A stretch of 64,000 nt of DNA from a virus (IMGVR_UViG_3300023283_000076:1-64000), one strand, 5' to 3'; positions 2,732-60,228 are shown, counted from the stretch's first letter. Notes: a model not told the origin generated them from the sequence alone. Numbers and translations: made by a program.

Positions 2732-2775
2732 TTGACAAATGGTTGATGATGAGTTAAAGGGTCTAAAGTAGGATA
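2732..2775 (+). promoter_or_regulatory. TTGACA-N17-TAAAGG-..CTA..TAGGA element (first of 13 copies)
   Basis: Exact 17-nt spacer; recurs across the window (see findings). Confidence 0.75.
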
Positions 2776-2806
2776 AAAAAAGAGGATGCGAATGATTCGC
2801 ATCCTC
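2775..2806 (-). terminator. intrinsic terminator of ardC
   Basis: GAGGATGCGAA-tga-TTCGCATCCTC 11-bp stem followed by a U-run on the minus strand; near-identical copy at about 3870-3899. Confidence 0.8.
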
Positions 2807-2825
2807 AATGGTACCTAATGATTAA

Positions 2826-3713
2826 TCAAGCGGCTTGCGCTTGATACTGTTCGGTTTCACCTGCTTCGCCTTCGATCAGGTAATCCGCTACCTTGCTTGC
2901 CTTGCTGGCGATATGCATCAGGCATTCAGGCTGTTCACGAAGCGCTGTGAGCCAGCTCTTCACATACTTTGCATGGTCCATGCGGGTAGTGACATCAATG
3001 CCCATACGAACGCCCACAATGGCTGCTGTAAGTTCTGCTAGCAGTTCTTCCAAAGCATATGCATTGCTTCCGAACCGGGTTGAAAGATTGCGGTCCAGTC
3101 GTGAAGCATGACCCGTCCAATGCGCCAGTTCATGGAATGCGGTCTGATAGTATGAATCCGCATCATGGAAGGCGTTGAATTCAGGAAGCAGGATGCGGTC
3201 ATGGCTTGGAATGTAACAGGCCATATTGCCGCCATGCTGGATTTCAGCGCCTGTTGCTGCGATCATTGCGTCGCATTCAGCGTGAATTTCATTTGTTGAA
3301 AGGGTAGGACGATCTTCCAGTGTCGGAGCGGTCCAGCCGTCAACTTGATCGGCATTGAATACGTTCGAGAATCGCAGGAAGGGAACCTTTTCAGGATTGC
3401 CGTTAGCGTCGAATCGAGTCTTGGAATCGATGATTTTCCAGAAAACAACCAATGAACCTTTTGATCCTTTCTTGACCGTGGCATCAATCGACTTCCATTG
3501 CTTAAAGGTAGCCCAATACGGAGATGAGAATCCAGCGCTCCACAATGAGAAGATATTGAAACCACGGTATGTCTTTTTTGTCACTGCATTGGTCGGAAAG
3601 TCTGTGGCAAACTTCGCCCATGGAGCAGTCCATTTACCATCCGCCATGCCTGCTTCGATTTGGTCTATAAAAGCTTGCGCTACAATCTTGTGAATCTTTT
3701 GATTTCCGTTCAT
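2826..3713 (-). CDS. ardC: ArdC-family antirestriction/ssDNA-binding protein (DUF1738 plus zincin-like domain)
   Basis: YRGFN, WATFKQW, VKKG.KG, FNADQ, HELAHWTGH..RLDR and YALEEL.AE motifs. Confidence 0.9.
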   Translation of the reverse strand: MNGNQKIHKIVAQAFIDQIEAGMADGKWTAPWAKFATDFPTNAVTKKTYRGFNIFSLWSAGFSSPYWATFKQWKSIDATVKKGSKGSLVVFWKIIDSKTRFDANGNPEKVPFLRFSNVFNADQVDGWTAPTLEDRPTLSTNEIHAECDAMIAATGAEIQHGGNMACYIPSHDRILLPEFNAFHDADSYYQTAFHELAHWTGHASRLDRNLSTRFGSNAYALEELLAELTAAIVGVRMGIDVTTRMDHAKYVKSWLTALREQPECLMHIASKASKVADYLIEGEAGETEQYQAQAA

Positions 3714-3724
3714 CGTGTTACCCT

Positions 3725-3798
3725 TATCAGTGAATGTAATTAAGGATTATACAGATATTTTCAGGATCGTCAACCGATTTCTGAAAATAATTGTAAAT
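3725..3798 (-). repeat. early promoter/leader cassette, copy 1
   Basis: 74 bp identical to parts of 4183-4308 and 4709-4834; TTGACG-N16-TATAAT then leader CATTCACTGATA and an RBS. Confidence 0.9.
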
Positions 3799-3920
3799 TT
3801 TTTTATGTAATGCAGTTCCGTCGAAAGTTCTTGACAAATGGTTGATGATGAGTTAAAGGCCCTAGGATAAAAAAGAGGATGCGAATGATTCGCATCCTCC
3901 TGATGATACGATTGAACCTA

Positions 3921-4175
3921 TCAGATAGGTTCACCGTTAAGTTCAAAGATGCTTTCCAATGGAATGCAGCGATACCCTTCGGCTTGAAGATCGTAAACGG
4001 TGACAAGATTGTGAGCCTTATCATCGTATGCCTTGTTACCGCCCTTGAGGTGTTTCGTGACTCCAAGACGGCAGTTCATGAAACGTTCCGCACCATTGGA
4101 CCGCTTGATGAAGCGAACAGAAAAAAACCGACCGTTGTTTCCGGCTTCCATGATCTTGTCGAATCGTTCCTGCAT
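3921..4175 (-). CDS. small phage SH3/Sm-like beta-barrel protein (WYL_2-like)
   Basis: FFSVRFIK..G.ER.MNCRLGV.KHLKGG...YD...GYR pattern common in phages. Confidence 0.6.
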   Translation of the reverse strand: MQERFDKIMEAGNNGRFFSVRFIKRSNGAERFMNCRLGVTKHLKGGNKAYDDKAHNLVTVYDLQAEGYRCIPLESIFELNGEPI

Positions 4176-4182
4176 CTTGTTT

Positions 4183-4308
4183 TCTCCTATCAGTGAATGT
4201 AATTAAGGATTATACAGATATTTTCAGGATCGTCAACCGATTTCTGAAAATAATTGTAAATCCGATTTGTGCATGAATTCTGATTGATTGATAGATGTTG
4301 ATTATATT
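4183..4308 (-). repeat. early promoter/leader cassette, copy 2
   Basis: 126 bp identical to 4709-4834. Confidence 0.9.
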
Positions 4309-4364
4309 TTTGCTTAGGGTATTGACAAATGGATGACGATGAGTTAAAGGCATTAGAATAGGAT

Positions 4365-4391: not shown

Positions 4392-4426
4392 AAAGTGAGC
4401 TAAGGGCCGGAACCCTATTCATTCAT

Positions 4427-4702
4427 TCACAATTTGCTTAATTTGAGCTTGAGTTTATGAATTTCGTGTTCAAGTTCCAGAACTCCGGGTCTTACGTTTT
4501 TAATAATAAGGCCGTCCAGTGCTGGTATAAGGCCGTCCAGTGCCTTCACGTTATGGTTGATGGTTGAATCAGGTAACGCATCATACATTCCGAGTAAATG
4601 CGTGTTAATGTCTTCCATGGCACGATACATATCTTCGATGCTCGCTTCGATTGCCTTGACGGCTTCGTTTCCAATCTCGATCAAGTTATCTTGGTCATAC
4701 AT
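4427..4702 (-). CDS. hypothetical helical protein
   Basis: ORF with RBS, own promoter cassette and terminator. Confidence 0.7.
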   Translation of the reverse strand: MYDQDNLIEIGNEAVKAIEASIEDMYRAMEDINTHLLGMYDALPDSTINHNVKALDGLIPALDGLIIKNVRPGVLELEHEIHKLKLKLSKL

Positions 4703-4834: not shown

Positions 4835-4910
4835 GATGAGTTAAAGGCATTAGAATAGGATAAAATTCAGGGGGGCATAGGATGCCCCCTGAATAGTTTT
4901 TGATCTTAAG

Positions 4911-5645: not shown

Positions 5646-5853
5646 AATATCTACTATCCTTTGTTTAGTGAATGTTAGAATCTATTATAATTATTTTTCG
5701 AGAGATTGCAAGGGGTTTAGTAATTATTGGTAAAATTTTTTGTGACATAGTTCCGTCGAACGTTGTTGCCCCATGGGATAGGATATGATAAAGGCTTTAG
5801 AGTAGGATTAAAAAAGGGCACGGAAAACCGTGCCCACCTAGACCATTCACTGA

Positions 5854-6157
5854 CTAGGATTGAGTTGGATTGACCAGAAGGGTGCAGACTGGTATGGTGA
5901 CGAAGCCCCTAGGGATTTCACGATGCGGGCGGGCAATCACCCCCAGCGTCTATTAAAGCATCTAATATGCCAGAGTTTTCGCTATAGTTCTTGATATCAG
6001 CCTCATCCTCAGCCATCGGTTCATCGGGAAGGTTGACTGTTGCCGTAGCAATTGGCTGGCCATCGTTTGCATCACAAAGCTGAATAGCGGTGCGCCCATT
6101 CGAATACGTGGCAAATTCAACGGTGGACTCAAAACCAGCAAAATTTACATTTTCCAT
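5854..6157 (-). CDS. conserved phage hypothetical protein, apparent frameshift at C5 run 5940-5944
   Basis: ATATVNL..IKNYSENSG motif; removing one base extends the frame to GFVTIPVCTLL and a stop at 5854. Confidence 0.6.
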
Positions 6158-6470
6158 AACTATTTCCCTTATTGAAATGATGTAAACAATTATACTGATA
6201 TTTTCAGAAGAGTCAATACTTATTTAAAATAAATTATTTCATTTATGGGTTGCAATTGTTTTGATTGTATGATAAAGGCTCTAGAGTAGGATAAAAGAAA
6301 AGGGGCCGAAGCCCCGATTCTTTATTCACTATAGTTATAATCACTAGCAGGGTGGTCTGTATCCTGATAGTATTCCCATCCCTTGCCACGGTCACGACGA
6401 AACAATGATGGAGTGGCAAAGCCGCCAAGGTCATACCATTGTTTCTTGGTTAGTTTGCGATAATTGTTTT

Positions 6471-6779: not shown

Positions 6780-6980
6780 AACGAGTTACCTTTATCAGTG
6801 AATGTGCAAATATTATCGCTTAGATATAAAGCGTTGTCAATAGAAATTTAAAAATTAATTTTTTAAAAATTACTTGACAACGGTATCAGGATATGATAAA
6901 GGCCCTAGGATAGGATGAAAAAAGTCTTGCATTTACAGGATGTTACATGTTACTATCTAGGGTTGAATCGAGATAAGGTT

Positions 6981-7047
6981 AAATGAGAATGGTTCTTATT
7001 GTCAAATGAGAATGGTTCTTATTGTCAAATGAGAATGGTTCTCATTT
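6981..7047. repeat. tandem 23-bp repeat of a Fur-box-like palindrome (about 3 units)
   Basis: AAATGAGAATGGTTCTTATTGTC twice, then AAATGAGAATGGTTCTCATTT. Confidence 0.85.
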
Positions 7048-7320
7048 AAGTAAAACCGCATGGTGACGATATCCATGTAAATGATCGGCACAACAATCAC
7101 AAGGACTTTTGGAAAATTCAATATCATCATCAGAATTTCTCATAACAATATGATTTCCCTGATTGATTTGATGTTGAACACTATTACGGATAGCGATTTC
7201 ACGCTGTTCCGCTTCATCAGGAAGAAAATGGTAATCAAGTCTGCTAAGATCATCATTAGCGATGAACATAGCGCAATCAACACAAACCATGAAACGTCCG
7301 TTGACAACTTCGGCAGACAT
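7042..7320 (-). CDS. hypothetical protein with CxxC pairs
   Basis: CVDC...FSKSPCDCC; own promoter/leader. Confidence 0.65.
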   Translation of the reverse strand: MSAEVVNGRFMVCVDCAMFIANDDLSRLDYHFLPDEAEQREIAIRNSVQHQINQGNHIVMRNSDDDIEFSKSPCDCCADHLHGYRHHAVLLK

Positions 7321-16664: not shown

Positions 16665-17549
16665 TTGATTTCCATTCTTATTCGATTTAGTGCATTCTAC
16701 CGAACTTCTATTTAGAAATCAAGAAAAATTTTATAATTAATTTTCTTGACAATAGGTTCAATCTATGGTAAAGGCTCTAGAGTAGGAAAAATAAAAGTCC
16801 CGAATAACCGGACCTTTTCTCCTATAGGTGAAAAGAAAAAAGGGTTAATATATCATTTAAGGGGCTGTCCATCCCCAGCTTTTTATAGGTGCTGATATAC
16901 CGCCCATTTTTTCTTCTTTATATGTTTAAAAAACAAGACTGGTGGCAAATCAATTAACGACCTTTGCTCTTACTCATCGGGACGGTCATGCGAGGACCAG
17001 TCTTGTAGTCTATTAACGAGAATTTTTTTGGGCCGGTCGCTTGGCGTCCGACTCACAATATCTTTGTCACCATCACCGGATCAGCATGGCCGATACTGTA
17101 GGGTTGCCCCACGATGTACTCTTGTCCACCGTTTTTGTCATCGGTATTTGCAAACGTGATTTATCATCACAACTACAGTCTAAACTATTTATCAAGGATT
17201 GTCAAGACTTTTTTAGACAATATTTCTAATCATTTGTTCCTTACGTCTTTCTATTCTCTCAATACGAGAATCATAATCTTCATTAGCGATAGACGGTGTT
17301 GCATTAATTGCTTCCTGTTCAATTGTCAGTGCCAAGAATTCAAGTGTATCTATCATTGTGTTATTCCTCCTCATCCCATTGTTCTAAGAAAGTTTGAATG
17401 TTTTGACTTTCCCGCTGCCAGCGATTTACATAATACTGCAACCTTTCTAATGATTCCTTATCAAGGAACGTATCACTAGAAAATACAGCAGAATCGAGTT
17501 CATCCAATAATTGTTCTGTATGTTTGTCCATAAATGATATTGTGCGCTA

Positions 17550-18932
17550 TTATGTTCTGCGAAACAAGAGTATATTCAAAAATTCTCTCTTGAACCTTGT
17601 ACCGAAACTTTCAGGTTCAGGTTCGGGTTCGGGGTCGGGTTCGGGTTCGGGTTCCACATAATCATTTGTATCACGTTCAATTATTGGCTCCGGTTCAGGT
17701 TCAGACTTTGCATATTTTTCCTGTAATGAATCATTATTAACGATAGTCATCCTTTCGTCATCAGTGATAGAACCGATACGGCATTGTGGCGGTGAAATAA
17801 TTGTACGCTGGACTGGTTGCGGAATACCCTTGTCATCCAACATCGATGTTAATGCTTCACCTACACCCAAACGAGTAATAATATCACTAACATTGATATT
17901 AGGATTATCCACAAACGTCTCAGCAGCCGCTCTAACGGCTTTTTGATCTCTTGGAGTGAATGCCCTTAGTGCATGTTGAACACGGTTGCCAAGCTGTCCT
18001 AAGACAGTCTCAGGTATATCGTCAGGGTTCTGCGAACAAAAGTATACGCCTACACCCTTGGAACGGATCAATCTTACTACCTGTTCAACTCTGCGAAGCA
18101 ATGCACCCGAGCAATCATCGAACAACAAGTGAGCTTCATCAAAAAAGAATACCAACCTAGGCTTGTCAACATCACCAATTTCTGGCATCTTATCGAATAA
18201 CTCTGACAATAACCAAAGCAAAAAGGTGGAATACATTCTAGGCCGAAGTATAAGACTTTCAGCAGAAAGAATATTGATAACACCCTTGCCATTTTGTTCA
18301 CGCATGAAATCAGACAACTCTAATGCAGGAGTACCAAAGAAATTATCAATGCCATCATTTTCCAGTGTGAGTAATCGACGCTGGATGACTCCGATACTAT
18401 TGGCGCTTATTAGTCCATATTCGGTACTGATAGACTCACGATTCTGCGCCATATGACTCAACAGTTTACGAAAATCTGTGAGAGTCTCAAAGGGCATACC
18501 ACGTTCTCTTGCATAATGATATACAACATCAAGTACACCCTCTTGAGCATCACTAACATCAAGCATTCTTGCCATCAATGTCGCACCGATGCTTTCTACG
18601 CTTGTTCGGATAGGATTACCAATCTTATCCCATAAATCCCAAAAGGATACCGGATTACTTGAAAAGTCAAAAGCATCAAGACCAATTTTTTCAGCACGGC
18701 CACGAATCTTTTGATTATCCTCACCTTGCATTGCCAAACCTGCCATATCACCCTTAACGTCAGCCATGAATACCGGTACTCCCATACGGGAAAAACCTTC
18801 GGCCAACATCATCAGGGTTACCGTCTTGCCAGTACCTGTAGCGCCAGCAACTAGACCATGACGATTAGCATACTTGCCAAGCAAATGTACTTGGGATTCG
18901 TCGCCTTTTCCTATTAGGATAGTATCATTCAT
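17550..18932 (-). CDS. HerA-like/DUF853 (YjgR-family) P-loop ATPase
   Basis: RHGLVAGATGTGKT, FFFDEAH, LIRSKGVGV and QLGNRVQHALRAFTP; PE-rich tail. Confidence 0.9.
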   Translation of the reverse strand: MNDTILIGKGDESQVHLLGKYANRHGLVAGATGTGKTVTLMMLAEGFSRMGVPVFMADVKGDMAGLAMQGEDNQKIRGRAEKIGLDAFDFSSNPVSFWDLWDKIGNPIRTSVESIGATLMARMLDVSDAQEGVLDVVYHYARERGMPFETLTDFRKLLSHMAQNRESISTEYGLISANSIGVIQRRLLTLENDGIDNFFGTPALELSDFMREQNGKGVINILSAESLILRPRMYSTFLLWLLSELFDKMPEIGDVDKPRLVFFFDEAHLLFDDCSGALLRRVEQVVRLIRSKGVGVYFCSQNPDDIPETVLGQLGNRVQHALRAFTPRDQKAVRAAAETFVDNPNINVSDIITRLGVGEALTSMLDDKGIPQPVQRTIISPPQCRIGSITDDERMTIVNNDSLQEKYAKSEPEPEPIIERDTNDYVEPEPEPDPEPEPEPESFGTRFKREFLNILLFRRT

Positions 18933-19172: not shown

Positions 19173-19793
19173 ATTACCATAGGATACTCAACAAACCAAT
19201 TAAAAAAACTCTTGACATTATTTAAAATACATGATAAAGGCTCTACGGTAGGGATAAGAATTATCTTATCCCTTTTTTCGAGAGAATATTAGAGTTTCTT
19301 TATTTTTTCGCGATGAATACTGGAAGTTTCTCCACAAGACCATTGAACTATTGGAATTGTATGAATTTTTTCTTGCATACAGAAAGCTCTACGCCTCTTG
19401 CATTATTCGTGATTCCAACAACCATACCTACTCCACCATAATCACTTTCAACCAAAATACCGTATTGACATTGATTCAATTTTATTTATTTCTCCCTTAC
19501 TTTGAGTATGAGTTTAGCACCTGCAATCATCCCTGTAACAAAGATTACTGCAATTGCCGAGAGTACGTTTAAGAGTTCTAGTATCATAGTTTTTCCAGCC
19601 CATGCATCAAAGAGTATGTATTTCGCTCATTCATTTGTTAATCCTCATGTTCTATAATTAAAGAAAGCTATTTACCAATGCATTGATAAGATTTACAACG
19701 TCCTATACAAAGTTTTTGGAGTGCCGTCAGTCTAAGTGTTCAGAAATGAGTCAGCCGATTAACGACTGACTCTTAGAGTATCCCGGCAGACTT

Positions 19794-20540
19794 TTACCGA
19801 ATGAACAAGTCTGCCGGGATACTTTCAACCTGTTCAGGCAGGAACTCCGTCTTGTCCAGTACAAGCCTGTCGAAGTTATCTTCTTTCAGTGAAAGGGTTT
19901 TGAGACCAACTGACCGAAGATTCATAGTAGACTTGATCGCATTAGAAATAAGCACTGGAGCGCCAGAATTGACCGTCTTGTACTCGCCCGGTTCGATTAC
20001 CTTACGCCTGATTTCGAGAATCGTCAGCATGATAGATTCTACAACAGGCAAACCGTTAATCATAATCGGCTGGCGAATGCCATCATCATCCTTTTCGGTG
20101 CGATAATGAACCTTCACACCTTGACCGATGTTGCAGTAGCAACGATCATGTGCTTGTCGATGTGCGTCACTACGGTCACCATCAAGAGACTTCTGATAAC
20201 TGGCAATTTCCTTTTGACGGCGAGTGTTGAACAATTCCCTGCGCTCATCTTCTGTCAGTTTCGTCAGCTTCGGATTGTCTGGAAGATTATCAGCAATATC
20301 GTCATAGCTGATAGATTCCAATGCCGCAATCCGACGCCTATAAAGACGTTCAGTAGAGAATGCAGTAAGAAACTGAATATCAGCCGTTTCAGGCTTTACA
20401 CGGCCCGATTTCATTGTGTAACCATGAACGGTGCCAATACCACCTTTAACAATGGTTTCCAGCTTTCTCAATGTCTCCTGTTGTGCTTCAGTGCAACGAA
20501 ACTTACAACCAGACTCAGATTCATATACGACAAATTTCAT
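19794..20540 (-). CDS. conserved hypothetical protein
   Basis: 248-aa ORF with GGAG RBS and TTGACA-N17-TATACT promoter. Confidence 0.8.
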   Translation of the reverse strand: MKFVVYESESGCKFRCTEAQQETLRKLETIVKGGIGTVHGYTMKSGRVKPETADIQFLTAFSTERLYRRRIAALESISYDDIADNLPDNPKLTKLTEDERRELFNTRRQKEIASYQKSLDGDRSDAHRQAHDRCYCNIGQGVKVHYRTEKDDDGIRQPIMINGLPVVESIMLTILEIRRKVIEPGEYKTVNSGAPVLISNAIKSTMNLRSVGLKTLSLKEDNFDRLVLDKTEFLPEQVESIPADLFIR

Positions 20541-20924
20541 GCTTAGCTCCTATTTTACGGTTTATGATAAATAGTATAATCTACGAAATTCGTTATGTCA
20601 ATGAATTATTAAAAATATGCTTCCGAATTTTTTTGAAACAACTCTATGCCCTACGGGATTTCATACCACTTAGGGTATGTTTCCTTGGTTAGCCGGGACA
20701 CATAGTGTAGCATAAAGGTTAATGAAATGTAAAAGTTTTTAATCCCTATCCTAGGACCTTTATCATATATTCAAATCAATGTCAACCCCCTTGCATAAAT
20801 TTTTTTTCCTGTTACACTATAGGGTGAAATGTACGATTGAGTTAATGCGAATTAGTCGTATTCGTAAATTAAATTTTAGTTTTTAACAAATGCGAGTGAT
20901 TATCATTTTAGAAACGGAAAATAC

Positions 20925-21326
20925 ATGGTTAGCAGAGAACAATGCCAGTACAGTAAAGCGCTGGATAAATTAAAAACAAAAGAATGCGCCAAATGTAATG
21001 GTGCAGGCTACATTGATGACATAGACCCCAAAGATATGTTTTACAATGTGTGGGAATGCTCCGAATGTATCGGAACAGGATATGGCATAATTCTCCCAAG
21101 ACCCGATGCAGATAAAGCATTGAAGGAAATGATCAAAACTCTTACACCAGCGTTTATGAAAGATAAAGCATTAAACGAGGTTGAAAAATTTTTTCTTGTA
21201 ATACCAGCTAGTGAAGTTATTTTTAGAGATTATGAAAAAGGAATCCTAATTTTAAATTTGTTTAATGATATCGTAATATGTATCAAGCAAGATGGGTTTG
21301 CATGGATAGAATATGAAAACCCCTAA
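20925..21326 (+). CDS. protein with DnaJ-type zinc-finger repeats
   Basis: CAKCNGAG and CSECIGTG. Confidence 0.65.
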   Translation: MVSREQCQYSKALDKLKTKECAKCNGAGYIDDIDPKDMFYNVWECSECIGTGYGIILPRPDADKALKEMIKTLTPAFMKDKALNEVEKFFLVIPASEVIFRDYEKGILILNLFNDIVICIKQDGFAWIEYENP

Positions 21327-23082: not shown

Positions 23083-23337
23083 ATGAAAATTGAAGATCAA
23101 AAGAAAATGCATGAACTCTATGCACATTACTGGATGGCTATGGCCACTACTGTTCGTGAAAGTACTTCTAATGATGAACCTTTGACAGAAGATATGCTAA
23201 ACGCTGCATTAGAGTATATTCATATGTTTAAAGAATGTGCAGAAAATCAACAAATAGAAGAAGAACCAGATTTCAGTGTAAAAGCGCCGCCAATAGAGTA
23301 CTATAAAGGAGAGGACCAGTCTTGTTTTATGGGGTGA
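23083..23337 (+). CDS. hypothetical protein
   Basis: GAGG RBS. Confidence 0.6.
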   Translation: MKIEDQKKMHELYAHYWMAMATTVRESTSNDEPLTEDMLNAALEYIHMFKECAENQQIEEEPDFSVKAPPIEYYKGEDQSCFMG

Positions 23338-23409
23338 ATGATGGGACTCGAACCCATAATACGTGTCTGTTTTGGAGTCACGCGCGTCTACCAGTTCCGC
23401 CACACCCAC
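23330..23409 (-). tRNA. pseudo-tRNA (Leu-like body, CCA/CAA anticodon)
   Basis: Acceptor, D and T arms intact; anticodon stem broken by a ~4-nt insertion. Confidence 0.6.
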
Positions 23410-38213: not shown

Positions 38214-39218
38214 TTACTTAACCCAAGCCCATGTATCACCGTTGCGAATCTTACGAATTGTAGCTTCATCTACATTATACACATCTGCAATTCGTACAAT
38301 CGGCCATATACCCTCTGCCAGCAACTGTCTAATCCCCCTAACCTTATGTTCGTTCAGTTTACTTCGAGTTACACGAGAGTTTGGGGTTTCAACGTTGGGC
38401 TTTGGTTCACCCTCTGCGCCCTCCAAGTCTGTAAATTGATCGTCATCATCCAAATCACCATCAACATCACCATATTCGTCAGTATAAAACGAAGGTGTCA
38501 GCGTTTCATCGTTATAGAACTGATCTGAAATATCATCTACAACTTCATAAGCGCAAACACGCATCTTGGCATTATTATAATCTTTGGGAACCGCTACTAC
38601 ATCCTTTGGATGAACCTTGACAAGGAGAACTTTGTTCCCCGGTCCACTACCGAAACAAGGAAGATAACTACGGGAACATACATGCAATCCATAGGAACAG
38701 GTACGTTCAGAATCTTCGTCTACCTTGTTACGTGGAATTTCAACCTTAGTTCCTACTACATTACTAATAGTACCGCTATGAATATCGGTAAAGTCATTAC
38801 GAACTTTCTTGTATGCAAGGAAATGTCCATCGTTAGTAAAAGGCAAATCACATGCTTCCAAAAATTGCCTATACAATTCATTAACAACACGATAACTGTT
38901 GTCCATTAGATTATCCATGACCCGAAGCAACGGCTTGTAGGGATACCCATTAGCCCACAGAAAATGCAATCTATTAACAATTACATTATAGATTTCATCA
39001 CCATTGAAATACAGATTGTAACCATCAAAAGTAATACGTCCAGCGGATTCACTTTCAATGTTTGCCTTTGCATTCAGCAAACGGTCAAGACTATATTCAT
39101 CACCATTAGTGATCGCATCCATCACTGCATCAAACTGATCGGTTGAACGCGGAATTGTGTGAGCCTTACCATTCAAAACTACACACAAATTTTGTTCCGT
39201 CAAATTCCAAGCTAACAT
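38214..39218 (-). CDS. rIIB: rIIB-like protein with C-terminal HTH (copy A)
   Basis: FLAYKKVR..F.D.HSG, RNKVDED..RTCSYGLHV and KVHP.DVV.VP.DY...KMRVC.Y. Confidence 0.88.
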   Translation of the reverse strand: MLAWNLTEQNLCVVLNGKAHTIPRSTDQFDAVMDAITNGDEYSLDRLLNAKANIESESAGRITFDGYNLYFNGDEIYNVIVNRLHFLWANGYPYKPLLRVMDNLMDNSYRVVNELYRQFLEACDLPFTNDGHFLAYKKVRNDFTDIHSGTISNVVGTKVEIPRNKVDEDSERTCSYGLHVCSRSYLPCFGSGPGNKVLLVKVHPKDVVAVPKDYNNAKMRVCAYEVVDDISDQFYNDETLTPSFYTDEYGDVDGDLDDDDQFTDLEGAEGEPKPNVETPNSRVTRSKLNEHKVRGIRQLLAEGIWPIVRIADVYNVDEATIRKIRNGDTWAWVK

Positions 39219-41731: not shown

Positions 41732-41850
41732 TTGTTAAATCTCCTATGTTTGTTAAGTGAACAGTCTACCAAAAAATTTAGTGATTTGCAATAGAAATTT
41801 TTAATTCATTTCCTTATTCACGAACCGCCATCGTACCATGGAACCCCATT

Positions 41851-42213
41851 CTAGTCAAGAGTCAACCCATGCCAATACTTAACACTAAGATTACGGGTAC
41901 TTTTTATTTTGTTATTCTTATCTACATACACATTTTTATAGTTTATTTCATCTAATTGTGCCTTTAATTTATTCAATGATTTTCCTGAAACAATATTGAT
42001 ATATGGATTAACGATATCGACAGACACATAAAAATTTTCTTTTGTGTCATAGCGTGCATATTCCAAACTCGCACAATCTCCATTTGATGACCGTGGATGG
42101 TATAACAAAACCATTCCGCTATCCTCATCTTCAATAAGCATAATGGCCTCTATTATTTCACCGATGTCACGTACTCCGAATTCACTAGTGACCTTATATT
42201 TAACAATATTCAT
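41851..42213 (-). CDS. hypothetical protein; paralogue of 59415..59759
   Basis: Near-identical protein. Confidence 0.75.
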   Translation of the reverse strand: MNIVKYKVTSEFGVRDIGEIIEAIMLIEDEDSGMVLLYHPRSSNGDCASLEYARYDTKENFYVSVDIVNPYINIVSGKSLNKLKAQLDEINYKNVYVDKNNKIKSTRNLSVKYWHGLTLD

Positions 42214-45644: not shown

Positions 45645-45893
45645 CTCTATTCCCTATTTTGAACGCGCTCGCGAATCATCAATATGCTTCTTGAGCTTAC
45701 CCTTGATTCCTAATGCGAACCGGGACAATTTAGTCAATCCGATGACTACCAATATTCCAATTGTAGCATACAACGGCACAAAATACAAAACCATATCTTA
45801 AGACCTTTATCATATTTTTATGATGTTGTCAACCCTTGATCTAACACTTTTTGTATGCTATGCTATGGTAGCAAATACCATATCCCATACGCT

Positions 45894-52485: not shown

Positions 52486-52590
52486 AGCGTAGGACATAAT
52501 GATATTCTCTACCATATTATATCACAAAAAAAGTTTAAATCAAGGGTTGACATTGTATATATTATATGGTAAAGGTACTAAAGTAGGAAT

Positions 52591-53250
52591 TTGTATTTTT
52601 CCATGTTGATATTGTGTACAAGTATTTTTTATGTTATACTGAGGGTTCAAATTATATTGGAGAATATAAAAATGATTAACAAGATATATAATATTGTTAG
52701 TATGGAAATGGATAACTCTAGGGTACGTTTTAACTACACTTCTAAGGTTACTATTGCGATATGGTTGACTCTAACTGTAGAGGTGTTTATTCATGTTGCA
52801 AGTGCGTTTCTATTTTTAGAAGTAAATAATGATGGCCACATTTATAGTGATGTTACTTTTAATCAATTTGCATTTTTATTAAATATTTTCCCATACCTGT
52901 TACTTTGTTTATGCAGTTTGATTGTTTTAATTGATAAGATTATTGGCGTATTAACTTCATTTATTACTGAGGATGATTATGTAGAAGAGCATTTCCTTTC
53001 TAGCCGGATTATTGGTGTTCCTTCTTATGAAATTGAAAATATTTTATTTTTACAAACGATATATATGGTATTATATATTACCGTGATGCCAATATTGTTT
53101 TTAGTTGTATTTCCGTCATGGATTCCACTTGTTGTAATAGTAGGCGTTATTGTTGGTGTAATGTATCTGGCGAGATTTTCATATCGTTTGAGTAAGCGAT
53201 TAAGGACACATATTAATGATCCTAATGCACATACAAAGGAGAATGCATAA
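52591..53250 (+). CDS. multi-TM membrane protein (probable start near 52672)
   Basis: Hydrophobic; C-terminus THINDPNAH shared with the next gene. Confidence 0.7.
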   Translation: MYFSMLILCTSIFYVILRVQIILENIKMINKIYNIVSMEMDNSRVRFNYTSKVTIAIWLTLTVEVFIHVASAFLFLEVNNDGHIYSDVTFNQFAFLLNIFPYLLLCLCSLIVLIDKIIGVLTSFITEDDYVEEHFLSSRIIGVPSYEIENILFLQTIYMVLYITVMPILFLVVFPSWIPLVVIVGVIVGVMYLARFSYRLSKRLRTHINDPNAHTKENA

Positions 53251-53729
53251 TGTTTAATAAGATACTTAAAATATTTAACGATGATATTTCGTTTTTACAA
53301 TTTATAGCAGCAGTGACTGGTCCGGCTTCAGGTATAGCCATGGCCATGTTAATAGATCTTGATAAAAGTTCCAGTTCTGTAATTGTTACATCTGTTCCAA
53401 TGTTTTGGTTTATGCTGCTAGCTCTAATTACAGCTATTGTTAAGATTGGAGCTATGTATGTAGAATATGCTACCAGAGGTGAGTATACTATTCCTTCTGA
53501 CTGGATGTTATTTGATGATAAAGGTTTGTTGCATAGTTTGACTCTTTATTGGTATATACTCGTATTGACCACATATACTCTTATAGTCTTGTATTATACA
53601 CCATTATCTATTACAATTGGAATATTGTTAATTATAGGATTGACTGCGTTATCGAGATTCGTGTTTGGAATCATGGGTAAACTCGATACTCATGTTAATG
53701 ATGCTGATGCACATTTGAAGAAAAAATAA
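53250..53729 (+). CDS. multi-TM membrane protein; paralogue of the upstream gene
   Basis: THVNDADAH C-terminus; remnant at about 45655-45795. Confidence 0.7.
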   Translation: MFNKILKIFNDDISFLQFIAAVTGPASGIAMAMLIDLDKSSSSVIVTSVPMFWFMLLALITAIVKIGAMYVEYATRGEYTIPSDWMLFDDKGLLHSLTLYWYILVLTTYTLIVLYYTPLSITIGILLIIGLTALSRFVFGIMGKLDTHVNDADAHLKKK

Positions 53730-53833
53730 ACAAGGATATTTAAGAATGTTTTATATAATTGAATATTTCTATTGTTGTATGGATGTTGCAATAAAGTCTT
53801 GTATTTTTAGTCATGTATTCAAAGGAATAAAGA

Positions 53834-54979
53834 ATGAAATATTTTAGATTATCATATATAGTATTATTGTCATGTTTATTATTGTATAGTGAGGATGTTA
53901 TTGTTAAAGAATTATCTGTTAATGACGTTAGCATCATTGAACTATCGAATATATCTGAAGATAATTTAAAAGATATTGAGATAACTGTTTTTGGTCGATC
54001 ATTTACATTAGAACTCTCTAAAAACGTTGAATTGTTTTCCACATTGGTTTCTAATAATGGTGATGATTTATTTTTACGTGGAACGGTATCAGGTATTTCT
54101 AATTCTTGGGTTCGGTTGAATAGAATTGATGGAGATTTCAGTGGTGGATTCTTTGATGGTCAAGAACTCTATTTAATTGATCACAGTATGGGACTGACTA
54201 ATAATTCACTTAATGATAATACTATTGTATACAGATTATCTGATTTAAATATTCCATTTCATATTGATGATGGTGGTATTGAAAATATTTCTGTTAATGA
54301 TACAGAAAAAGATTATAAAACATTTATTGGACATTTACGTGAATTTGTTAAAATTCAAGAAACTGCTGTATTAGCATTACCTTTAACGATTGTCAGTGAT
54401 GTTGAATTTAATGATATTCATGGTGATAATGCTACATCTATAATAGCAGGTAGAATTAATTTAATTGATGGTATTTACACTAATCAATTAGGAGTTGGGC
54501 TTATATTTTATCATCATGAAATATTATCAGATAATGGTCCATTGATATCGAATGATGCATTACAATTATTAAGAACGTTTAGGACTTTTATGGATACTGG
54601 TATTGGGCAAGATATCCCCTTTGAAGGTATAGCTCATTTAGTTACTGGTAAGAATTTTGATGGTAGCACTATTGGTACTGCATTCATGGATGTTCTTTGT
54701 AGCAGTTTTGCTGGATACGGTGTTAATCAAGATTTTTCTAATGATACTACCAGTGCATTGATATTGGCACATGAGATCGGTCATAATTTTAGTGCTCCAC
54801 ATGATGGACAACCGAATTCTGCATGTGAAGATGAAACATTTAGGGGAATCATGAGTGCTAGTATTAATGGATCGCAACAGTTTAGTGATTGTAGTCTTGA
54901 TCGAATGGCGCAAGCAGTTTCTTCTGCAAATTGTTTAGTAGAACGTGGAGAAGTTATTTTTTCTGATGGTTTTGAATAA
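53834..54979 (+). CDS. secreted M12B/reprolysin-like zinc metalloprotease
   Basis: Signal-like N-terminus, AHEIGHNFSAPHD, IM Met-turn, FS.CS and C-terminal IFSDGFE. Confidence 0.85.
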   Translation: MKYFRLSYIVLLSCLLLYSEDVIVKELSVNDVSIIELSNISEDNLKDIEITVFGRSFTLELSKNVELFSTLVSNNGDDLFLRGTVSGISNSWVRLNRIDGDFSGGFFDGQELYLIDHSMGLTNNSLNDNTIVYRLSDLNIPFHIDDGGIENISVNDTEKDYKTFIGHLREFVKIQETAVLALPLTIVSDVEFNDIHGDNATSIIAGRINLIDGIYTNQLGVGLIFYHHEILSDNGPLISNDALQLLRTFRTFMDTGIGQDIPFEGIAHLVTGKNFDGSTIGTAFMDVLCSSFAGYGVNQDFSNDTTSALILAHEIGHNFSAPHDGQPNSACEDETFRGIMSASINGSQQFSDCSLDRMAQAVSSANCLVERGEVIFSDGFE

Positions 54980-55014
54980 TTGACATTTATAAAAAGCTAT
55001 GATAGAGTAAATGA

Positions 55015-55797
55015 ATGAGAATAATTTCAAAATATTCAGATTATTATGATTCGGTGATGGGATCAGGTTATGACCCTTCATTGATTTTCAAACGTAAAGG
55101 CGCTTTTGATGATCCTATTGATTCATATGTGAATTTTGATGATTCATTTGGATATAGAGCCACGGTAGATCATACTGATCAGGCTCGCTATCTTGGAACA
55201 AAGTTGAATCCTGAATATTTTGGATATGTTTATCTAGGTAATCGAAGTAAAAAACTTCATAATAATAGAATCATTTTAGAGAAGGCTTTCAGAGCACATT
55301 CCAAGAGAAATGTTACTATTATTGATAGTGTTTTTTACGTAATAGGTTTCTGTGGTAAGACATATGTGATTTATGAAATTGATTATAGCATAGACAATAA
55401 TCGATCATGTTTTCGAATAGTGAATAAAAAGAATAAATTATTTCAAAAAGTGGATAAGAAAAAACGGGACATGATTGTAGTAGGTGAAATTCCTGATTTG
55501 ATACGGGGAAATGTTCATGACATTTTTCTTTATCTTAATTGCCCTATTTTTCTTTTAGAGATGGTTAAATATAATAACAGAGTTAAAATAATTCGTAACC
55601 CGATCTTGAAAGATTTAGGATTTGCTGCTATACTTGATCCATATACTGCTTATCAGGAATTGTCTATGTACATGGGATCGGTGTTTGCACCATCTGAGCC
55701 TGATATGGTAGATATATCTGATAAAGACTTATCTGAGTCCAAGGGATTCAATGATTGGTCTTTTAAAAAGTATCCAACAAAAAGGAAGAGTAAATGA
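55015..55797 (+). CDS. conserved phage hypothetical protein; paralogue of 44865..45644
   Basis: Protein similarity. Confidence 0.8.
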   Translation: MRIISKYSDYYDSVMGSGYDPSLIFKRKGAFDDPIDSYVNFDDSFGYRATVDHTDQARYLGTKLNPEYFGYVYLGNRSKKLHNNRIILEKAFRAHSKRNVTIIDSVFYVIGFCGKTYVIYEIDYSIDNNRSCFRIVNKKNKLFQKVDKKKRDMIVVGEIPDLIRGNVHDIFLYLNCPIFLLEMVKYNNRVKIIRNPILKDLGFAAILDPYTAYQELSMYMGSVFAPSEPDMVDISDKDLSESKGFNDWSFKKYPTKRKSK

Positions 55798-55955
55798 TTT
55801 ATATATTTGGATTTGTTTCATTGTTATTGGTTGCAGTCACCGTATGGTGTTTTGCCAAAGTATGCAAAACTGATCGATATTCATATCGTGAAGTTGATGA
55901 CAATTAGCGCTTAACATTGGTTCTAATGGTTTTCACTGTGCTGTAGCTGTATTTA

Positions 55956-56213
55956 ATGGAAGAATGGAACATGACTGATATTATAAGTGGCGTAATCGAA
56001 GAACGTGGTAATGGTTTGCCTAGTGTTGATGATTATGCCTATCACAGCTTGACTAACACGGTCTACCGAATTGTTAACACTGGTTGTATTGTTACAGGAC
56101 GTGTTGGGCAGGGTAATTTAATGCATGTAAAACTAGAAGAATATGGTGATCCGTTTGATTTGACAGATGAACAATTTGATGATATTGTATGGGCTTTACA
56201 TTTAGAAGAATAG
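55956..56213 (+). CDS. hypothetical protein; paralogue of 44143..44415
   Basis: Protein similarity. Confidence 0.75.
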   Translation: MEEWNMTDIISGVIEERGNGLPSVDDYAYHSLTNTVYRIVNTGCIVTGRVGQGNLMHVKLEEYGDPFDLTDEQFDDIVWALHLEE

Positions 56214-56281
56214 TAAGTATTGACAGAAAAAAGTTGAAAAAAGTGTTGACAAAGAATAAATAAAGCGTTAGAATGGTTTCC

Positions 56282-57215
56282 AAGTTGGAGACAGAGAGTA
56301 ACTGAACCATATGATCCATAGTCATTTTCTCCGGTTGCTCTAGCGTAAATGTCTCCAACTTTTAATTAAGAAAAAAGAAGTACAGTTTTGGGCATGACCG
56401 TGATAGCTCATTGAAAGATGGGTAACGGGAAAGGTGCTACCCACCTTCCCGCCTAGAGAAATTTAGGTTGAGTCATGCAAGCCGAGACTCTGGAAAATTC
56501 GTCCATAATAATTCAGGCGGATTTCAGACGAAACGGGATGGTAGGTTAGACCGAGGCCAACTGGTAAGGTCGTTCTAAGGTGACGCTTAGTACCTACATG
56601 TCAACATCTTGAGCGTTGGAGAGTCAAAGGGTAGTTATTTGGTGTGAGTCTTAGCGGATAAATGCTGAATAGCAATGTTAACGGTGAGCTAAACCTTATC
56701 GTGAAACATGGTCGAAAGTAATCTTAGCGGATGAAACGGCAAACGGTGTTGTCATATTTCGTACCTCAAAAGGGTATGAAGTGATGGAGACGGCACATCG
56801 TTAGGTAGTTTGCAGTCTTTGTAGCTCAATAGGTAGAGCTACCGCCTTATAAGCGGTTTGTTGTAGGTTCAAGTCCTACCAAAGACCCATAATAGATAAC
56901 TGGGTTTAAAATGCAAAAGTCCGTCTCGGTAAAAGGTGAGCAAGGTAGTTAAGTCTACACTGCGAAAGCAGAATGTAGAATCTTTGAGGGCCGCAAGCTT
57001 GATAAGATTTGGTTAGAAGCGCACGTCGAGGGCCGTACAACCTTCGGGGGAAGCTGAAAGCCGAGTAGCCTTTTATGACAGCGCAAACGCTAGCGCTTTA
57101 CAAGACAGCACTACTTGATCGATAGATATTCGCAAGTGTTTTGCGCTTGGTTTATCTGGATAAGAAGTTAACTTTAGGTTTGCAGCCTGAAGGTACGGCG
57201 ACGAAAGGCGATCAA
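56282..57215 (+). ncRNA. large structured RNA locus, GOLLD-like candidate, with embedded tRNA
   Basis: About 930 nt without a credible ORF, dense hairpins, TTGACA-N17-TAGAAT promoter at about 56246-56274. Confidence 0.6.
56815..56889 (+). tRNA. tRNA-Ile(UAU)
   Basis: Cloverleaf, CT-TAT-AA loop; 3' end reads GAC-CCA, so the discriminator base appears missing. Confidence 0.85.
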
Positions 57216-57260
57216 TTTGTAGCAATAATCTCATGCTGCTATTTACTTTAACCTCAACAT

Positions 57261-57602
57261 ATGGTACTCTTAGTCATGGATAATTTACTCGATAGACAAA
57301 AGAATGATCTTGCAAACGAAATTACAACATTCATTACAAATATTACAGGAGTAGCTGTAGAACCTAATCCGAATGAAGGATTTGAATTTGTAGAGTACAG
57401 GAATTTTATTCCTAACAAACGATCAATTAATAATTCAATTAAAGAATTCAATATTCTATTTAATGTGCTATGTGAAAACGGATGGGAAGTAGATACTGAA
57501 ATAGAAGATTTTGATCTCGCTATCCATTTAACTAAAGCTCATTGTTTTGTTACTTTATCTATTTGTCGAAATGGATTACATGTTTTTTTTGAAGAGATTT
57601 GA
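57261..57602 (+). CDS. hypothetical protein; paralogue of 43478..43882
   Basis: Protein similarity. Confidence 0.7.
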   Translation: MVLLVMDNLLDRQKNDLANEITTFITNITGVAVEPNPNEGFEFVEYRNFIPNKRSINNSIKEFNILFNVLCENGWEVDTEIEDFDLAIHLTKAHCFVTLSICRNGLHVFFEEI

Positions 57603-57907
57603 TCATGAGTAATCAGGTAATTATTGATATTCGTCATTTCAGTGATGATATTATTATCTTGGCTGAAGATAATTATGGTAAAACGTTTCTTTCATTTACA
57701 CCAGACACCTACAAAAAATTTTCTAATGTAGAAGAACTTTTGTATGAAGTTGCGACCACACCCGAAATGGATGGATCGTTTTATATAGACCTTGAGGATT
57801 TTTCGGTCGTATGTGAATTATGTAACAGTGTAGAAGTGCATGGGTTTTATCCGCCGTCAGATGAACGTCACGATGAAGTTTTCGTGTATAATAATGACGA
57901 TGACTAA
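57599..57907 (+). CDS. hypothetical protein, right arm only
   Basis: ORF overlapping the upstream stop. Confidence 0.65.
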   Translation: MIMSNQVIIDIRHFSDDIIILAEDNYGKTFLSFTPDTYKKFSNVEELLYEVATTPEMDGSFYIDLEDFSVVCELCNSVEVHGFYPPSDERHDEVFVYNNDDD

Positions 57908-57939
57908 TAGGTCTATTTAGAAGAAATCTAAAGGATAGT

Positions 57940-58263
57940 ATGATGAACAACTTAAAACTTACTAAAGATGAATGTAAGCAATGGATTGAGGATTTGCGCT
58001 CTGGTGAATATAAACAGTGCAAGGGCAAATTGAAAACTGCAAATCAACATGGTGTATATTTTTGTTGTTTGGGTGTTTTGAAAGAGACACAGGATAAGCC
58101 TCGACATAAAGCTGTGGGGGGGGGTGAACAACAAGAGATTCTTAGTTATGATGTATTATCCAAAAACACACAACATACTCTGATAAAGATGAATGACGGT
58201 GGAATATCATTTTCAGAAATCTCAGATCATATCGAAAAAAGAATTTTGCCGCGTCGAAAATAA
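57940..58263 (+). CDS. conserved phage hypothetical protein
   Basis: WIEDLRSGEYKQ.KG.L....FCCLGVL. Confidence 0.75.
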   Translation: MMNNLKLTKDECKQWIEDLRSGEYKQCKGKLKTANQHGVYFCCLGVLKETQDKPRHKAVGGGEQQEILSYDVLSKNTQHTLIKMNDGGISFSEISDHIEKRILPRRK

Positions 58264-58335
58264 AATTAAAGAACCTATTGACAGTTAAGCAAACTTCGGA
58301 TATACTTTATTTCCAACAAAATTAGGAGAATTTAA

Positions 58336-59112
58336 TTGTATACTGGTTACAAGTCGAAAAATCTGTTGAGCGTAGGTGCAGATTCCAAAACGATCAAGAG
58401 TCTTAAGAAGGGTATCTTGACTGGTATTTTGTATCTCGCCCCGAATGACATTAGTGGTCATAATACATGTTCTAACGCCACAACGGGATGTAAGAAAGCA
58501 TGTTTGTATACTTCCGGGCATGGTCGCTTTAATAATGTACAAAAGGCACGTATTCGTAAGACTAAATGGTTTTTTGAAGAACGTGAAACCTTCATGGCAC
58601 AATTAGTAAAGAATGCTGAATCATTGGAGCGCAAGGCTTACCGTGAAAAGATGATACCGGCTATTCGTCTTAATGGTACAAGTGATATTCCGTTTGAAAA
58701 AATCCGTGTTGTTCGTCAGGGTGTTAATTATCGTAATATCATGCGAGCGTTTCCGGGTATTAGGTTTTACGACTATAGTAAAATCCTAGGACGTAAGATG
58801 GCTTTGGCAATGCCTAATTATCATTTAACGTTCAGTCTAGCTGAGGATAATGATACTCAAGCTGTTAAAGCATTGGGACAGGGTTATAATGTTGCTACTG
58901 TCATGCGTTTAAAGCGTAATGATCCAAAGCCTAAAACATGGGGTGGTTATCCTGTTATTGACGGTGATGAATTTGATGCACGTTTTCTTGATCCTGATGG
59001 TGGTCATATTGTAGCCCTATTTGCAAAGGCTGATGCTATACATGATACGTCAGGATTTGTTCGTGATCCTAATACAGGGTTTAATATTCCTATGAATGTA
59101 AAGGTGGCTTAA
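58336..59112 (+). CDS. GP88-family phage protein (intact copy)
   Basis: C..A..GC..ACL..SG.GRF, IRLNGTSD, FYDY.K and DGDE.D.RF.D. Confidence 0.75.
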   Translation: MYTGYKSKNLLSVGADSKTIKSLKKGILTGILYLAPNDISGHNTCSNATTGCKKACLYTSGHGRFNNVQKARIRKTKWFFEERETFMAQLVKNAESLERKAYREKMIPAIRLNGTSDIPFEKIRVVRQGVNYRNIMRAFPGIRFYDYSKILGRKMALAMPNYHLTFSLAEDNDTQAVKALGQGYNVATVMRLKRNDPKPKTWGGYPVIDGDEFDARFLDPDGGHIVALFAKADAIHDTSGFVRDPNTGFNIPMNVKVA

Positions 59113-59415
59113 ATGCAAACATCTAAAAGAGTACAAGTGCAGTATGACCAACTTAAATTGATTAATGCTGCAAAATATCTGGCCAAGTACAATAATATTG
59201 GCACTAAGAATCAAAACCGATCAGTAGATGATTGGTATCAAGATATTTTGAATAATATCAAACGTGCTGCTAAAGAAAAATTTGATATATTTTCTACAGG
59301 TGGTTACACATTGAATCTTGAAATTGATTCTTTTGATAGCTACCATGTAGATATAACAGTTTCTCCAAGTTTCGGAGATATTATTTTGAAAAGTACTGAG
59401 GTGTATATTCAATAA
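59113..59415 (+). CDS. hypothetical protein
   Basis: ORF in operon; remnant in left arm. Confidence 0.7.
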   Translation: MQTSKRVQVQYDQLKLINAAKYLAKYNNIGTKNQNRSVDDWYQDILNNIKRAAKEKFDIFSTGGYTLNLEIDSFDSYHVDITVSPSFGDIILKSTEVYIQ

Positions 59416-59759
59416 TGAATATTGTTAAATATAAGGTTACTGGTGAATTCGGGACATATAACATTGGTGAAGTTGTAGAATCAATTAAACTTATAGAAAC
59501 AGATAGTGGATTGGCTTTGTTATATCATCCAAGGGGTTCAAATGGAGATTGTGCAAGTTTGGAATATGCACAATATGATACCAAAGAAAATCTTTATGTA
59601 TCTGTTGATATCGTTGCTCAATACATCAATATTAATTCAGGAAAATTTTTGAATGAATTAAAAGCAAAATTAGATGAAATAAATTATCGGGACGTGTATT
59701 TAGATAAGAATAATAAAATACAAAAAGCAAATCAAAGTAAAGACAGCCTAAATGAATAA
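59415..59759 (+). CDS. hypothetical protein; paralogue of 41851..42213
   Basis: Protein similarity. Confidence 0.75.
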   Translation: MNIVKYKVTGEFGTYNIGEVVESIKLIETDSGLALLYHPRGSNGDCASLEYAQYDTKENLYVSVDIVAQYININSGKFLNELKAKLDEINYRDVYLDKNNKIQKANQSKDSLNE

Positions 59760-60006
59760 TGTAAACATGCATTATGTGAATATTATCATGCAGTATCTAT
59801 ATGATCGTGCTGCCACAGAAATGAAGTCGGTAACTCCCCGAGTAGTTTGGGGAGTGAATACTTTAGAAGAAAATGTAGATATCATTATAAAAGAATATGG
59901 ATTAGACTATCGTGAGGCATTTGACTTTGACGAATTTATGGACTCTGCTAGTTTTGTTGATCATAGCTTCGAAGATTTATTTGATTTAAAATATATTGAA
60001 AATTAG
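59752..60006 (+). CDS. hypothetical protein, right arm only
   Basis: ORF overlapping the upstream stop. Confidence 0.6.
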   Translation: MNNVNMHYVNIIMQYLYDRAATEMKSVTPRVVWGVNTLEENVDIIIKEYGLDYREAFDFDEFMDSASFVDHSFEDLFDLKYIEN

Positions 60007-60228
60007 GTTAATTTAATTTTTCCTATTTTAGAGCCTTTATCATAGATCCTACTCTCGTGTCAACCCATTTTTGTAAATAATAAATTAATTGCAAAAATGG
60101 GTTGACTATAACGGGATGCCATGGTATGATAGCGGCTCGTGAATAGGGAAATGAATTAGAAATTTCTCTTGTAAATCGCTAAAAATTTTGGTAGACTATT
60201 CACTCAACAAATATAGGAGATTTAACCA

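Follow-up and report, generated by a model that had tools for sequence, protein, structure and literature searches.

What does a phage do with promoter-like sites that seem well suited to attract the host RNA polymerase and that point backwards, into the end of a neighbouring gene? The question is raised by the first 64 kilobases (kb) of IMGVR_UViG_3300023283_000076, a 270,653-base-pair (bp) linear virus record of IMG/VR (34.5% G+C) that belongs to an uncultured giant phage; this stretch of 64,000 bp is hereafter called the window. A preliminary description had listed thirteen copies in the window of an element made of a TTGACA-like -35 box, a spacer fixed at 17 nucleotides (nt) in eleven of them, the hexamer TAAAGG at the place of the -10 box and a conserved downstream box. 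Every one of these copies was found at its position. We propose that the element may be a tight-binding and slow-opening docking site, or promoter, for the host sigma70 polymerase, which would be turned backwards, mark the borders of early-gene cassettes and give at most short antisense RNAs. We assign this proposal a probability of about 0.45, slightly below even odds.

The record is 79% complete according to the CheckV estimate. Besides HNH endonucleases and 16 tRNAs, it contains two rIIA/rIIB pairs, T4-type RNA ligases 1 and 2 and a late sigma factor of the gp55-like type. Two jumbo phages of Xanthomonas, Xoo-sp13 and XacN1, come closest among named phages, though both are distant. Small genes, most of them with a terminator of their own, fill the first ~101 kb. 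In this early region the TAAAGG elements stand alongside more than 100 near-consensus promoters of the forward type, TTGACA-N16/17-(TG)nTATAAT.

A sigma70-type site without T-7

Exact matches to TTGACA-N16-18-TAAAGG occur 10 times in the window, against 0.07 expected from 100 dinucleotide shuffles, the largest of which gave 1. When the complete 270,653 bp were scanned with a position-weight matrix, 26 good copies were obtained; all of them fall within the stretch from 2.7 to 100.7 kb, and the remaining 170 kb is free of them. TAAAGG is also the most frequent hexamer 17 bp downstream of TTGACA, with 20 of 245 genomic sites, the runner-up TATACT having 8. Given this excess and the coexistence with the canonical early promoters, the element is neither a product of chance nor an ordinary early promoter, and the view that it forms a distinct class holds. 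In the literature searched, TAAAGG was not linked with any promoter of a phage, and a class of this kind is not known from earlier descriptions.

Among the window copies, the spacer measures 17 nt in 11, as had been reported, and 18 nt in one (60021-60063). The -35 box is a perfect TTGACA in 10 of the 13; it is weaker in two (TTGCCC at 5766 and TTGCAA at 6250) and, judged against the copy at 4322, it has been removed by a deletion from the copy at 4842. In a sequence-weighted profile, information peaks at the -35 hexamer (1.2-2.4 bits per column), at a TRTGn motif directly preceding the -10 hexamer, at that hexamer and at the downstream box, the spacer holding almost none. G is present at -14 in 94% of the weighted copies, T-12 and A-11 are kept, and the predicted +1, about 7 nt past the hexamer, is a purine. 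The element thus resembles the extended -10 promoters of sigma70 in its TTGACA, its 17-bp spacer, its TGn or TRTGn motif, T-12 and A-11, and departs from them at a single requirement: their T-7 is replaced by G in every copy here, as well as in the related loci L119, L132, L134, L251 and L254 described below. T-7 is nearly invariant among known sigma70 promoters and, together with one other base, is flipped out by sigma70 when the DNA is opened. Feklistov and Darst reportedly showed in 2011 that it is held in a pocket of sigma, where it stabilises the open complex.

Since the conserved profile coincides with the contact points of sigma70, we regard the element as a sigma70-type site rather than a generic repeat. 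This bears on another explanation, in which the sites would serve a phage DNA-binding protein, nuclease or recombinase during cassette shuffling, or would be relics of inverted promoters homogenised by recombination. The presence of HNH endonucleases is in line with it, as are the repeated and clearly exchanged intergenic modules, which recall those of the PeSL cassettes (PMC2839356). However, a relic would drift, including back to T-7, whereas lineages with diverged spacers and flanks have kept hexamer, 17-bp distance and TG alike, and the conserved positions are precisely those touched by sigma70. We consider this explanation very improbable.

The downstream box had been called conserved. 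This is true of the present genome, where yyCTAGrrTAGGA is the consensus over copies whose spacers are unrelated, with TAGGG at 19212 and 20744, TATGG at 45791 and a 5-nt collapse at 3831 as variants. It does not extend to other lineages, each of which has a different sequence: the Xanthomonas phages show GGATGGCAGG, other relatives GCTGAA, GATGAwA or GATAAGT. Hence the box does not belong to the element universally, and we treat it as a putative lineage-specific initial transcribed or operator-like region. Its yyCTAGrr part is palindromic only weakly above shuffled sequences (p = 0.03 for perfect palindromes, 0.22 overall), and we do not claim that it is the operator of a dimeric protein. A leader-like CATTCACTGA follows 5-6 of the 26 copies, about 2 being expected by chance, and is no general feature. 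An Rfam search of the window returned tRNAs only, with no family match at the element region. A sigma-dependent pause in the manner of lambda Q, at TAGGAT and with a terminator close by, was rejected because TAGGAT is not conserved, many copies having TAGGAA or TAGGG.

Orientation and place in the early cassettes

On a gene map derived from a codon-usage gene model, 22 of the 26 genomic copies aim backwards at the gene before them, which is co-directional, and meet it at its 3' end; 25 have a divergently transcribed gene behind them. Within the window, ten copies face a convergent gene from its 3' side, while three stand in a sense orientation at strand-switch points (20744-20785, minus strand; 45791-45832, minus; 52547-52588, plus). 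Both the mostly antisense arrangement, facing the terminators of neighbouring early genes, and the three sense copies at divergence points had been noticed before, and the gene model bears them out. A T-ending promoter lies nearer the gene in each of these three cases, at 20601 (-), 45788 (-) and 52612 (+), respectively. No copy holds the place of gene-proximal promoter, and no open reading frame of at least 60 codons begins behind the antisense copies, apart from a spurious antisense one at 3879-4196.

The orientation is tied to the hexamer. Considering the intergenic TTGACA-N17-TAnnnn sites of the early region, 37 of 42 forward sites end in T and 16 of 18 backward sites are TAAAGG (Fisher p = 3e-9). 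A recognisable canonical promoter is found near 15 of the 26 copies, with the two -35 boxes 12-111 bp apart. Most antisense copies show the same order: past the hexamer come the box and an A-run, and these lead to the terminator hairpin of the preceding gene, read as its reverse complement. The GC core of this hairpin begins ~20-23 nt past the hexamer in all lineages having TAAAnG (18 antisense copies in this genome).

Such regularity has to be set against the idea of a global decoy, in which high-affinity but non-productive sites on the replicating phage DNA would absorb the host sigma70 holoenzyme and help to shut off the host. Strong binding determinants combined with a crippled -7 would suit a decoy, and 26 sites per genome would be multiplied by the genome copy number. 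Nevertheless, a sink requires neither a fixed orientation nor a fixed position, yet both are observed, and the phage itself needs the same holoenzyme for its own early promoters. As the fixed backward orientation and the position at cassette borders indicate a local role, we find a general decoy very unlikely.

Conservation among relatives

Related loci were collected from metagenomes by an alignment-based search with a 248-amino-acid marker protein, encoded at 19794-20540 (-) between two copies of the element; percentages given for loci are identities in this protein. The element is not private to one genome but is present in relatives throughout the clade, which answers the first objection foreseen in the preliminary description, a motif lacking in relatives. 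In L119 and L251 (76%) and L132 (69%), TTGACA-N17-(TATGG)TAAAGG occupies the same two positions on either side of the marker gene and is followed by another downstream box (GCTGAA...). The locus L134 (62%) carries 13 copies in 13 kb, all backward, all with N17 and TAAAGG, with the box GATGAwA. Each of them lies past a terminator made of an A-run, a hairpin and a T-run, and 10 of the 13 are separated by a gap of 23-24 bp from a canonical TGTATAAT promoter. Most of these hairpins stand between an A-run and a T-run and are thus two-way, so that any transcript would stop at ~45 nt.

More distant loci modify the hexamer. The 10 copies of L254 (57%) read TAAATG, TAAAGG, TAAACG or TAAAAG, always followed by G, -8 being free and G-7 fixed. 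TAAATG-G is found in L125 (56%) and TAAAGC in L135 (59%). Overall, -8 varies, but G-7 is constant in five or more lineages, whose copies number more than 50. Finally, L148 (46%) has 14 backward elements of another form, TTGAC(A/T)-N10-TCATGA-TAnnnn, in which the last base is A, G or C and T in none of the 14. As the binding determinants are kept there and T-7 is avoided in an independent sequence form, L148 points to the avoidance of T-7 as such. The same locus (Ga0163150_10001276) shows a further peculiarity: the heptamer GACATTA occurs 263 times in its 20.6 kb, counting both strands, and between ~13.5 and 19.6 kb TTGACA sites suggest a dense array with a 12-nt period (GACATTAnnCCn-like), apparently within repeated small genes that share a ...CTAGTTCAAGTTG... 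end.

Scans with the full pattern of an IMG/VR collection that does not include near relatives gave single chance matches, except for tandem pairs on two unrelated contigs, L177 and L186 (IMG/VR 3300030101_002257 and 3300030406_001839). These short contigs carry a tandem TTGACA-N12-GTATGCTAAAGG pair 136 bp apart and have no protein link to the window; they may represent an independent occurrence of the TGnTAAAGG hexamer.

The cultured phages XacN1 and Xoo-sp13 belong to the same clade, Xoo-sp13 through 51% identity of the marker protein and XacN1 through rIIA similarity and shared module DNA. Both have the same module, again turned backwards, with a canonical promoter at its back and the complement of a terminator ahead of it, and one XacN1 copy lies just upstream of the rIIA promoter, the position of the window copy 60021-60063. 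The differences concern the hexamer, which is the T-ending TAAAAT, the hairpin, which is 45-50 nt away, and the transcribed box, a conserved sequence of their own of ~16 nt (GGATGGyAGGmCGGG) that is longer than the box of this genome. These elements are unannotated in the two records, and the published XacN1 paper makes no mention of promoters.

The Xanthomonas elements support another explanation, namely an ordinary, constitutive and weak antisense sigma70 promoter whose short RNA against the 3' end or terminator of the preceding messenger RNA would be what matters, the hexamer merely tuning its strength. Their hexamer is the normal TAAAAT, their conserved ~16-nt start looks like a functional RNA 5' end, and in this genome too the first transcribed bases (rrTAGGA and the A-run) are constant over copies with different spacers. 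But the transcribed box is not kept from one lineage to another, and the region has no match in Rfam. Moreover, there are many ways of adjusting how strong a promoter is, but here -35 box, spacer and TG stay optimal and only -7 is hit, a pattern repeated in L148. We therefore judge a plain weak promoter unlikely.

The architecture of the element, its orientation, its position and its conservation are direct observations. Hence the backward promoter is an ancient component of the early cassettes of this clade, and the loss of T-7 is a derived trait to which the low-GC lineages adhere strictly; it seems to have had two origins, each with a sequence form of its own.

A proposed docking site at cassette borders

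How could a promoter kept in all but one base be useful? Apart from A-11, the conserved positions are those where sigma70 regions 4, 3.0 and 2.4 read duplex DNA. The determinants of initial binding, i.e. TTGACA, the 17-bp spacer, TRTG/TGn, T-12 and A-11, are all retained. With optimal binding preserved and T-7 removed, high occupancy and slow or conditional opening are predicted. We thus infer polymerase binding, slow opening and a function at borders. A local role of this sort is supported by the place of the element in the intergenic module of the single-gene early cassettes, directly past the terminator and at the back of the next early promoter. A polymerase held at such a border would block or catch both polymerases reading through and polymerases remaining after termination. 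The polymerase footprint reaches about +20; as the hairpin core starts ~20-23 nt past the hexamer, a bound polymerase would cover the T-tract of the terminator. The element may in addition shield the neighbouring promoter or be coupled with it, and the two would have an A/T-rich upstream region in common. Firing of the element would yield a short RNA antisense to the terminator and the 3' end of the preceding gene. In L134 the product would be ~45 nt long and end at the two-way terminator; in the present genome it would be complementary to the last part of the preceding gene. As L134 transcripts would be so short, the RNA is probably not the main point.

Several observations weigh against this proposal. 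With their T-ending hexamer, the backward elements of XacN1 and Xoo-sp13 probably fire normally, and their distant hairpins indicate that the tight geometry with the terminator is not universal. In this genome, a T-run in the backward direction is seen at only about 3 of the 18 hairpins, so that transcripts, once fired, would run into the upstream gene. Four copies are placed at strand-switch points, where no read-through arrives. Elongating polymerases are able to dislodge promoter-bound "sitting ducks", which makes the strength of such a roadblock uncertain. Finally, the invariance of G-7, usually with G-6, in the TAAAnG clade goes beyond avoidance of T and hints at specific recognition.

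This last point leads to the possibility of a factor-dependent temporal class: a phage protein that escapes recognition, or a modification of sigma70 or of the core enzyme, would open TAAAnG promoters and bring about a timed antisense shut-off of early genes by collision and double-stranded RNA. T4-type phages re-programme sigma70 through AsiA and MotA. The constancy of G-7 beside a variable -8, which looks like specific recognition, is the best argument for such a class; the elements are also confined to the early region, and since most backward hairpins here have no T-run, transcripts could enter the upstream gene. On the other hand, transcripts of L134 would mostly stop early, L148 avoids T-7 without fixing one base, and no copy drives a gene. 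Six-frame Pfam searches of the 79%-complete record detected neither AsiA nor MotA, neither a T7-type single-subunit nor a multi-subunit RNA polymerase, and no sigma factor possessing both region 2 and region 4, the sigma-like matches being limited to the gp55-like late sigma and two weak helix-turn-helix matches; this is weak negative evidence, because the record is incomplete and divergent factors could escape the profiles. We hold a factor-dependent class to be the main rival of the docking proposal, though rather unlikely. The stronger version, in which the clade would re-programme the host sigma70 to open G-7 promoters as a private temporal class with the sole job of firing backwards to switch early cassettes off, seems to us more doubtful still.

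Other candidates were rejected. TAAAGGG resembles the start of T3 promoters, but no polymerase gene was found and a phage polymerase would leave TTGACA at exactly N17 unexplained. TAAAG could be read as a -35 box of the sigma28 type; inspection by eye revealed no GCCGATAA-like -10 at the right distance. A Q-like antiterminator was considered for the product of 20925-21326 (+), a 133-amino-acid protein matching the PHROG family "anti-termination protein Q-like" (E = 3e-12), whose gene is divergent from a sense TAAAGG copy in an order kept in the related locus L122. According to Pfam, this match amounts only to a DnaJ-type CXXCXGXG zinc finger.

Comparison with known systems

The element fits neither the middle nor the late promoters of T4. 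Middle promoters, which depend on MotA and AsiA, have a MotA box at -30 in place of the -35 box, where TTGACA stands here. Late promoters, which depend on gp55, have TATAAATA at -10 and lack a -35 box; here the hexamer is another one, and the -35 box is conserved. TATAAATA itself is found 57 times, at sites scattered along the entire genome.

Taken as a unit, the cassette is closer to the PeSL cassettes of the T4-type phages RB49 and phi1, in which a forward consensus promoter precedes the open reading frame (Arbiol et al. 2010, PMC2839356). Both consist of small early or ORFan genes, each with a strong sigma70-type promoter and a stem-loop terminator, and both form repeated, recombination-prone intergenic modules in a plastic region of a T4-related genome (PMC2839356). 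The present cassette therefore agrees with PeSL in promoter, hairpin and repeated modules, and disagrees in the orientation of the second element, 22 of 26 copies being backward. No backward promoter and no non-canonical -10 were reported for PeSL (PMC2839356), whereas a second, backward element without the terminal T is present here.

Among described phenomena, the nearest is the antisense initiation that takes place close to bacterial terminators. It offers a precedent for the docking proposal: about 20% of the intrinsic terminators of E. coli have antisense initiation nearby, the polymerase staying on the DNA after termination, and the possibility that selection favours these sites was raised by Harden et al. 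(2020, PMC6978322). Retention of the polymerase on DNA after intrinsic termination, followed by secondary initiation, has also been reported by Kang et al. (2020, PMC6978380). Like the secondary-initiation sites, the TAAAGG elements are antisense and near intrinsic terminators between co-directional genes, within the ~200 nt used to define those sites (PMC6978322). The two differ in that it is the -35 which is atypical at the sites of E. coli and B. subtilis, their -10 being normal (PMC6978322), while the situation is reversed here, with a perfect -35 and an atypical -10. They also differ in that the distance to the hairpin is nearly fixed here and the element is kept across a phage clade. A further parallel could be drawn with promoters of the leu-500 type, activated by supercoiling and coupled to divergent transcription (a subject of PMC6170449 and PMC5175336). 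These combine a defective, hard-to-open -10 with a back-to-back strong promoter; this may be taken as an analogy only, and the gaps between the two -35 boxes, from 5 to 111 bp, show no clear helical phasing.

Individual copies and their surroundings

The copy at 2732-2773 (+) has TTGACA, N17, TAAAGG and the box GTCTAAAGTAGGA, and faces the terminator hairpin of the gene at 2826-3713 (-). It illustrates the back-to-back arrangement, with a canonical early promoter (TTGACT...TACTAT, 2671-2698, -) at a -35/-35 gap of 33 bp. At 3831-3872 (+), where the box has undergone the 5-nt collapse (CCCTAGGATAAAA), the element faces a hairpin of the same family, and at 4322-4363 (+) it faces the terminator of the gene at 4427-4702 (-). 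The deletion derivative at 4842-4860 (+) has kept TAAAGG and the box and, lacking its -35, is probably dead. The element with the weak TTGCCC, at 5766-5807 (+), faces the terminator of the gene at 5918-6157 (-). An example of an early-gene terminator hairpin is found at 5810-5829 (-), with the arms GGGCACGG/CCGTGCCC and a T-run on the minus strand, starting ~21 nt from the TAAAGG hexamer. The other weak -35, TTGCAA, belongs to the copy at 6250-6291 (+), back-to-back at 34 bp with the canonical promoter 6216 (-), and the copy at 6874-6915 (+) faces the gene at 7042-7320 (-). Downstream of 16746-16787 (+), a hairpin followed by TTTT may be a two-way terminator. The copy at 19212-19253 (+), which converges on the genes at 19348-20540 (-), is directly followed by a hairpin of its own and T6, which predicts an RNA of ~40 nt. 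The minus-strand copy at 60021-60063, the one with N18, is back-to-back at 38 bp with the rIIA promoter (60102, +).

Regarding the sense copies, 20744-20785 (-) is back-to-back with the promoter of 20925-21326 (+), and the canonical promoter 20601 (-) is located between it and the gene at 19794-20540 (-); its position is kept in L119, L122, L132 and L251. The two others border a central unique spacer of the early region. At its left edge, the promoter TTGTAT-N17-TACAAT (45788) comes 16 nt past the hexamer of 45791-45832 (-). At its right edge, TTGTGT-N17-TATACT (52612) stands between the copy 52547-52588 (+) and the gene at 52657-53250 (+).

This spacer, ~6.5 kb long, is the centre of a large and diverged inverted duplication that makes up the early region: window positions 1-45800 correspond to genome positions 52500-101000, of which 52500-64000 are in the window. 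The genes of the left arm, on the minus strand, are mirrored by those of the right arm, on the plus strand, and promoters and TAAAGG elements are mirrored in pairs. Each arm has its rIIA/rIIB pair, at 39278-41731 and 38214-39218 (-) on the left and at 60229-62697 and 62757-63881 (+) on the right; the left rIIA has no backward element upstream (41850-42000). The right arm contains an insert absent from the left one. In this insert lies the gene at 53834-54979 (+); its product, of 381 amino acids, matches the reprolysin (M12B) zinc-metalloproteases by its Pfam domain (E = 8e-20).

The neighbour of the marker gene at 17550-18932 (-) encodes a 460-amino-acid protein with weak terminase-like matches in PHROG. 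The two genes adjoin each other also in L119, L122, L251 and Xoo-sp13, and the counterparts in L119 and L122 have HerA_C/DUF87 ATPase domains. Two tRNA genes with unusual anticodons were identified by ARAGORN, an 80-nt tRNA-Phe (AAA) at 23330-23409 (-) and a tRNA-Ile (TAT) at 56815-56888 (+); Rfam supports both as tRNAs, with 41.8 and 71.6 bits, respectively.

Significance

Dozens of otherwise perfect promoters deprived of T-7 constitute a natural experiment that separates the binding of the polymerase from the opening of the promoter. As XacN1 and Xoo-sp13 are cultured and carry the module in its T-ending form, the question is open to bench work. Should a phage factor be needed, the elements would reveal a new way of re-programming sigma70. 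If, as we propose, the sites hold or catch polymerase at the borders of early cassettes, they would represent the first case of insulators evolved for, and dedicated to, "polymerase parking", and they would provide a function for the antisense initiation seen near bacterial terminators.

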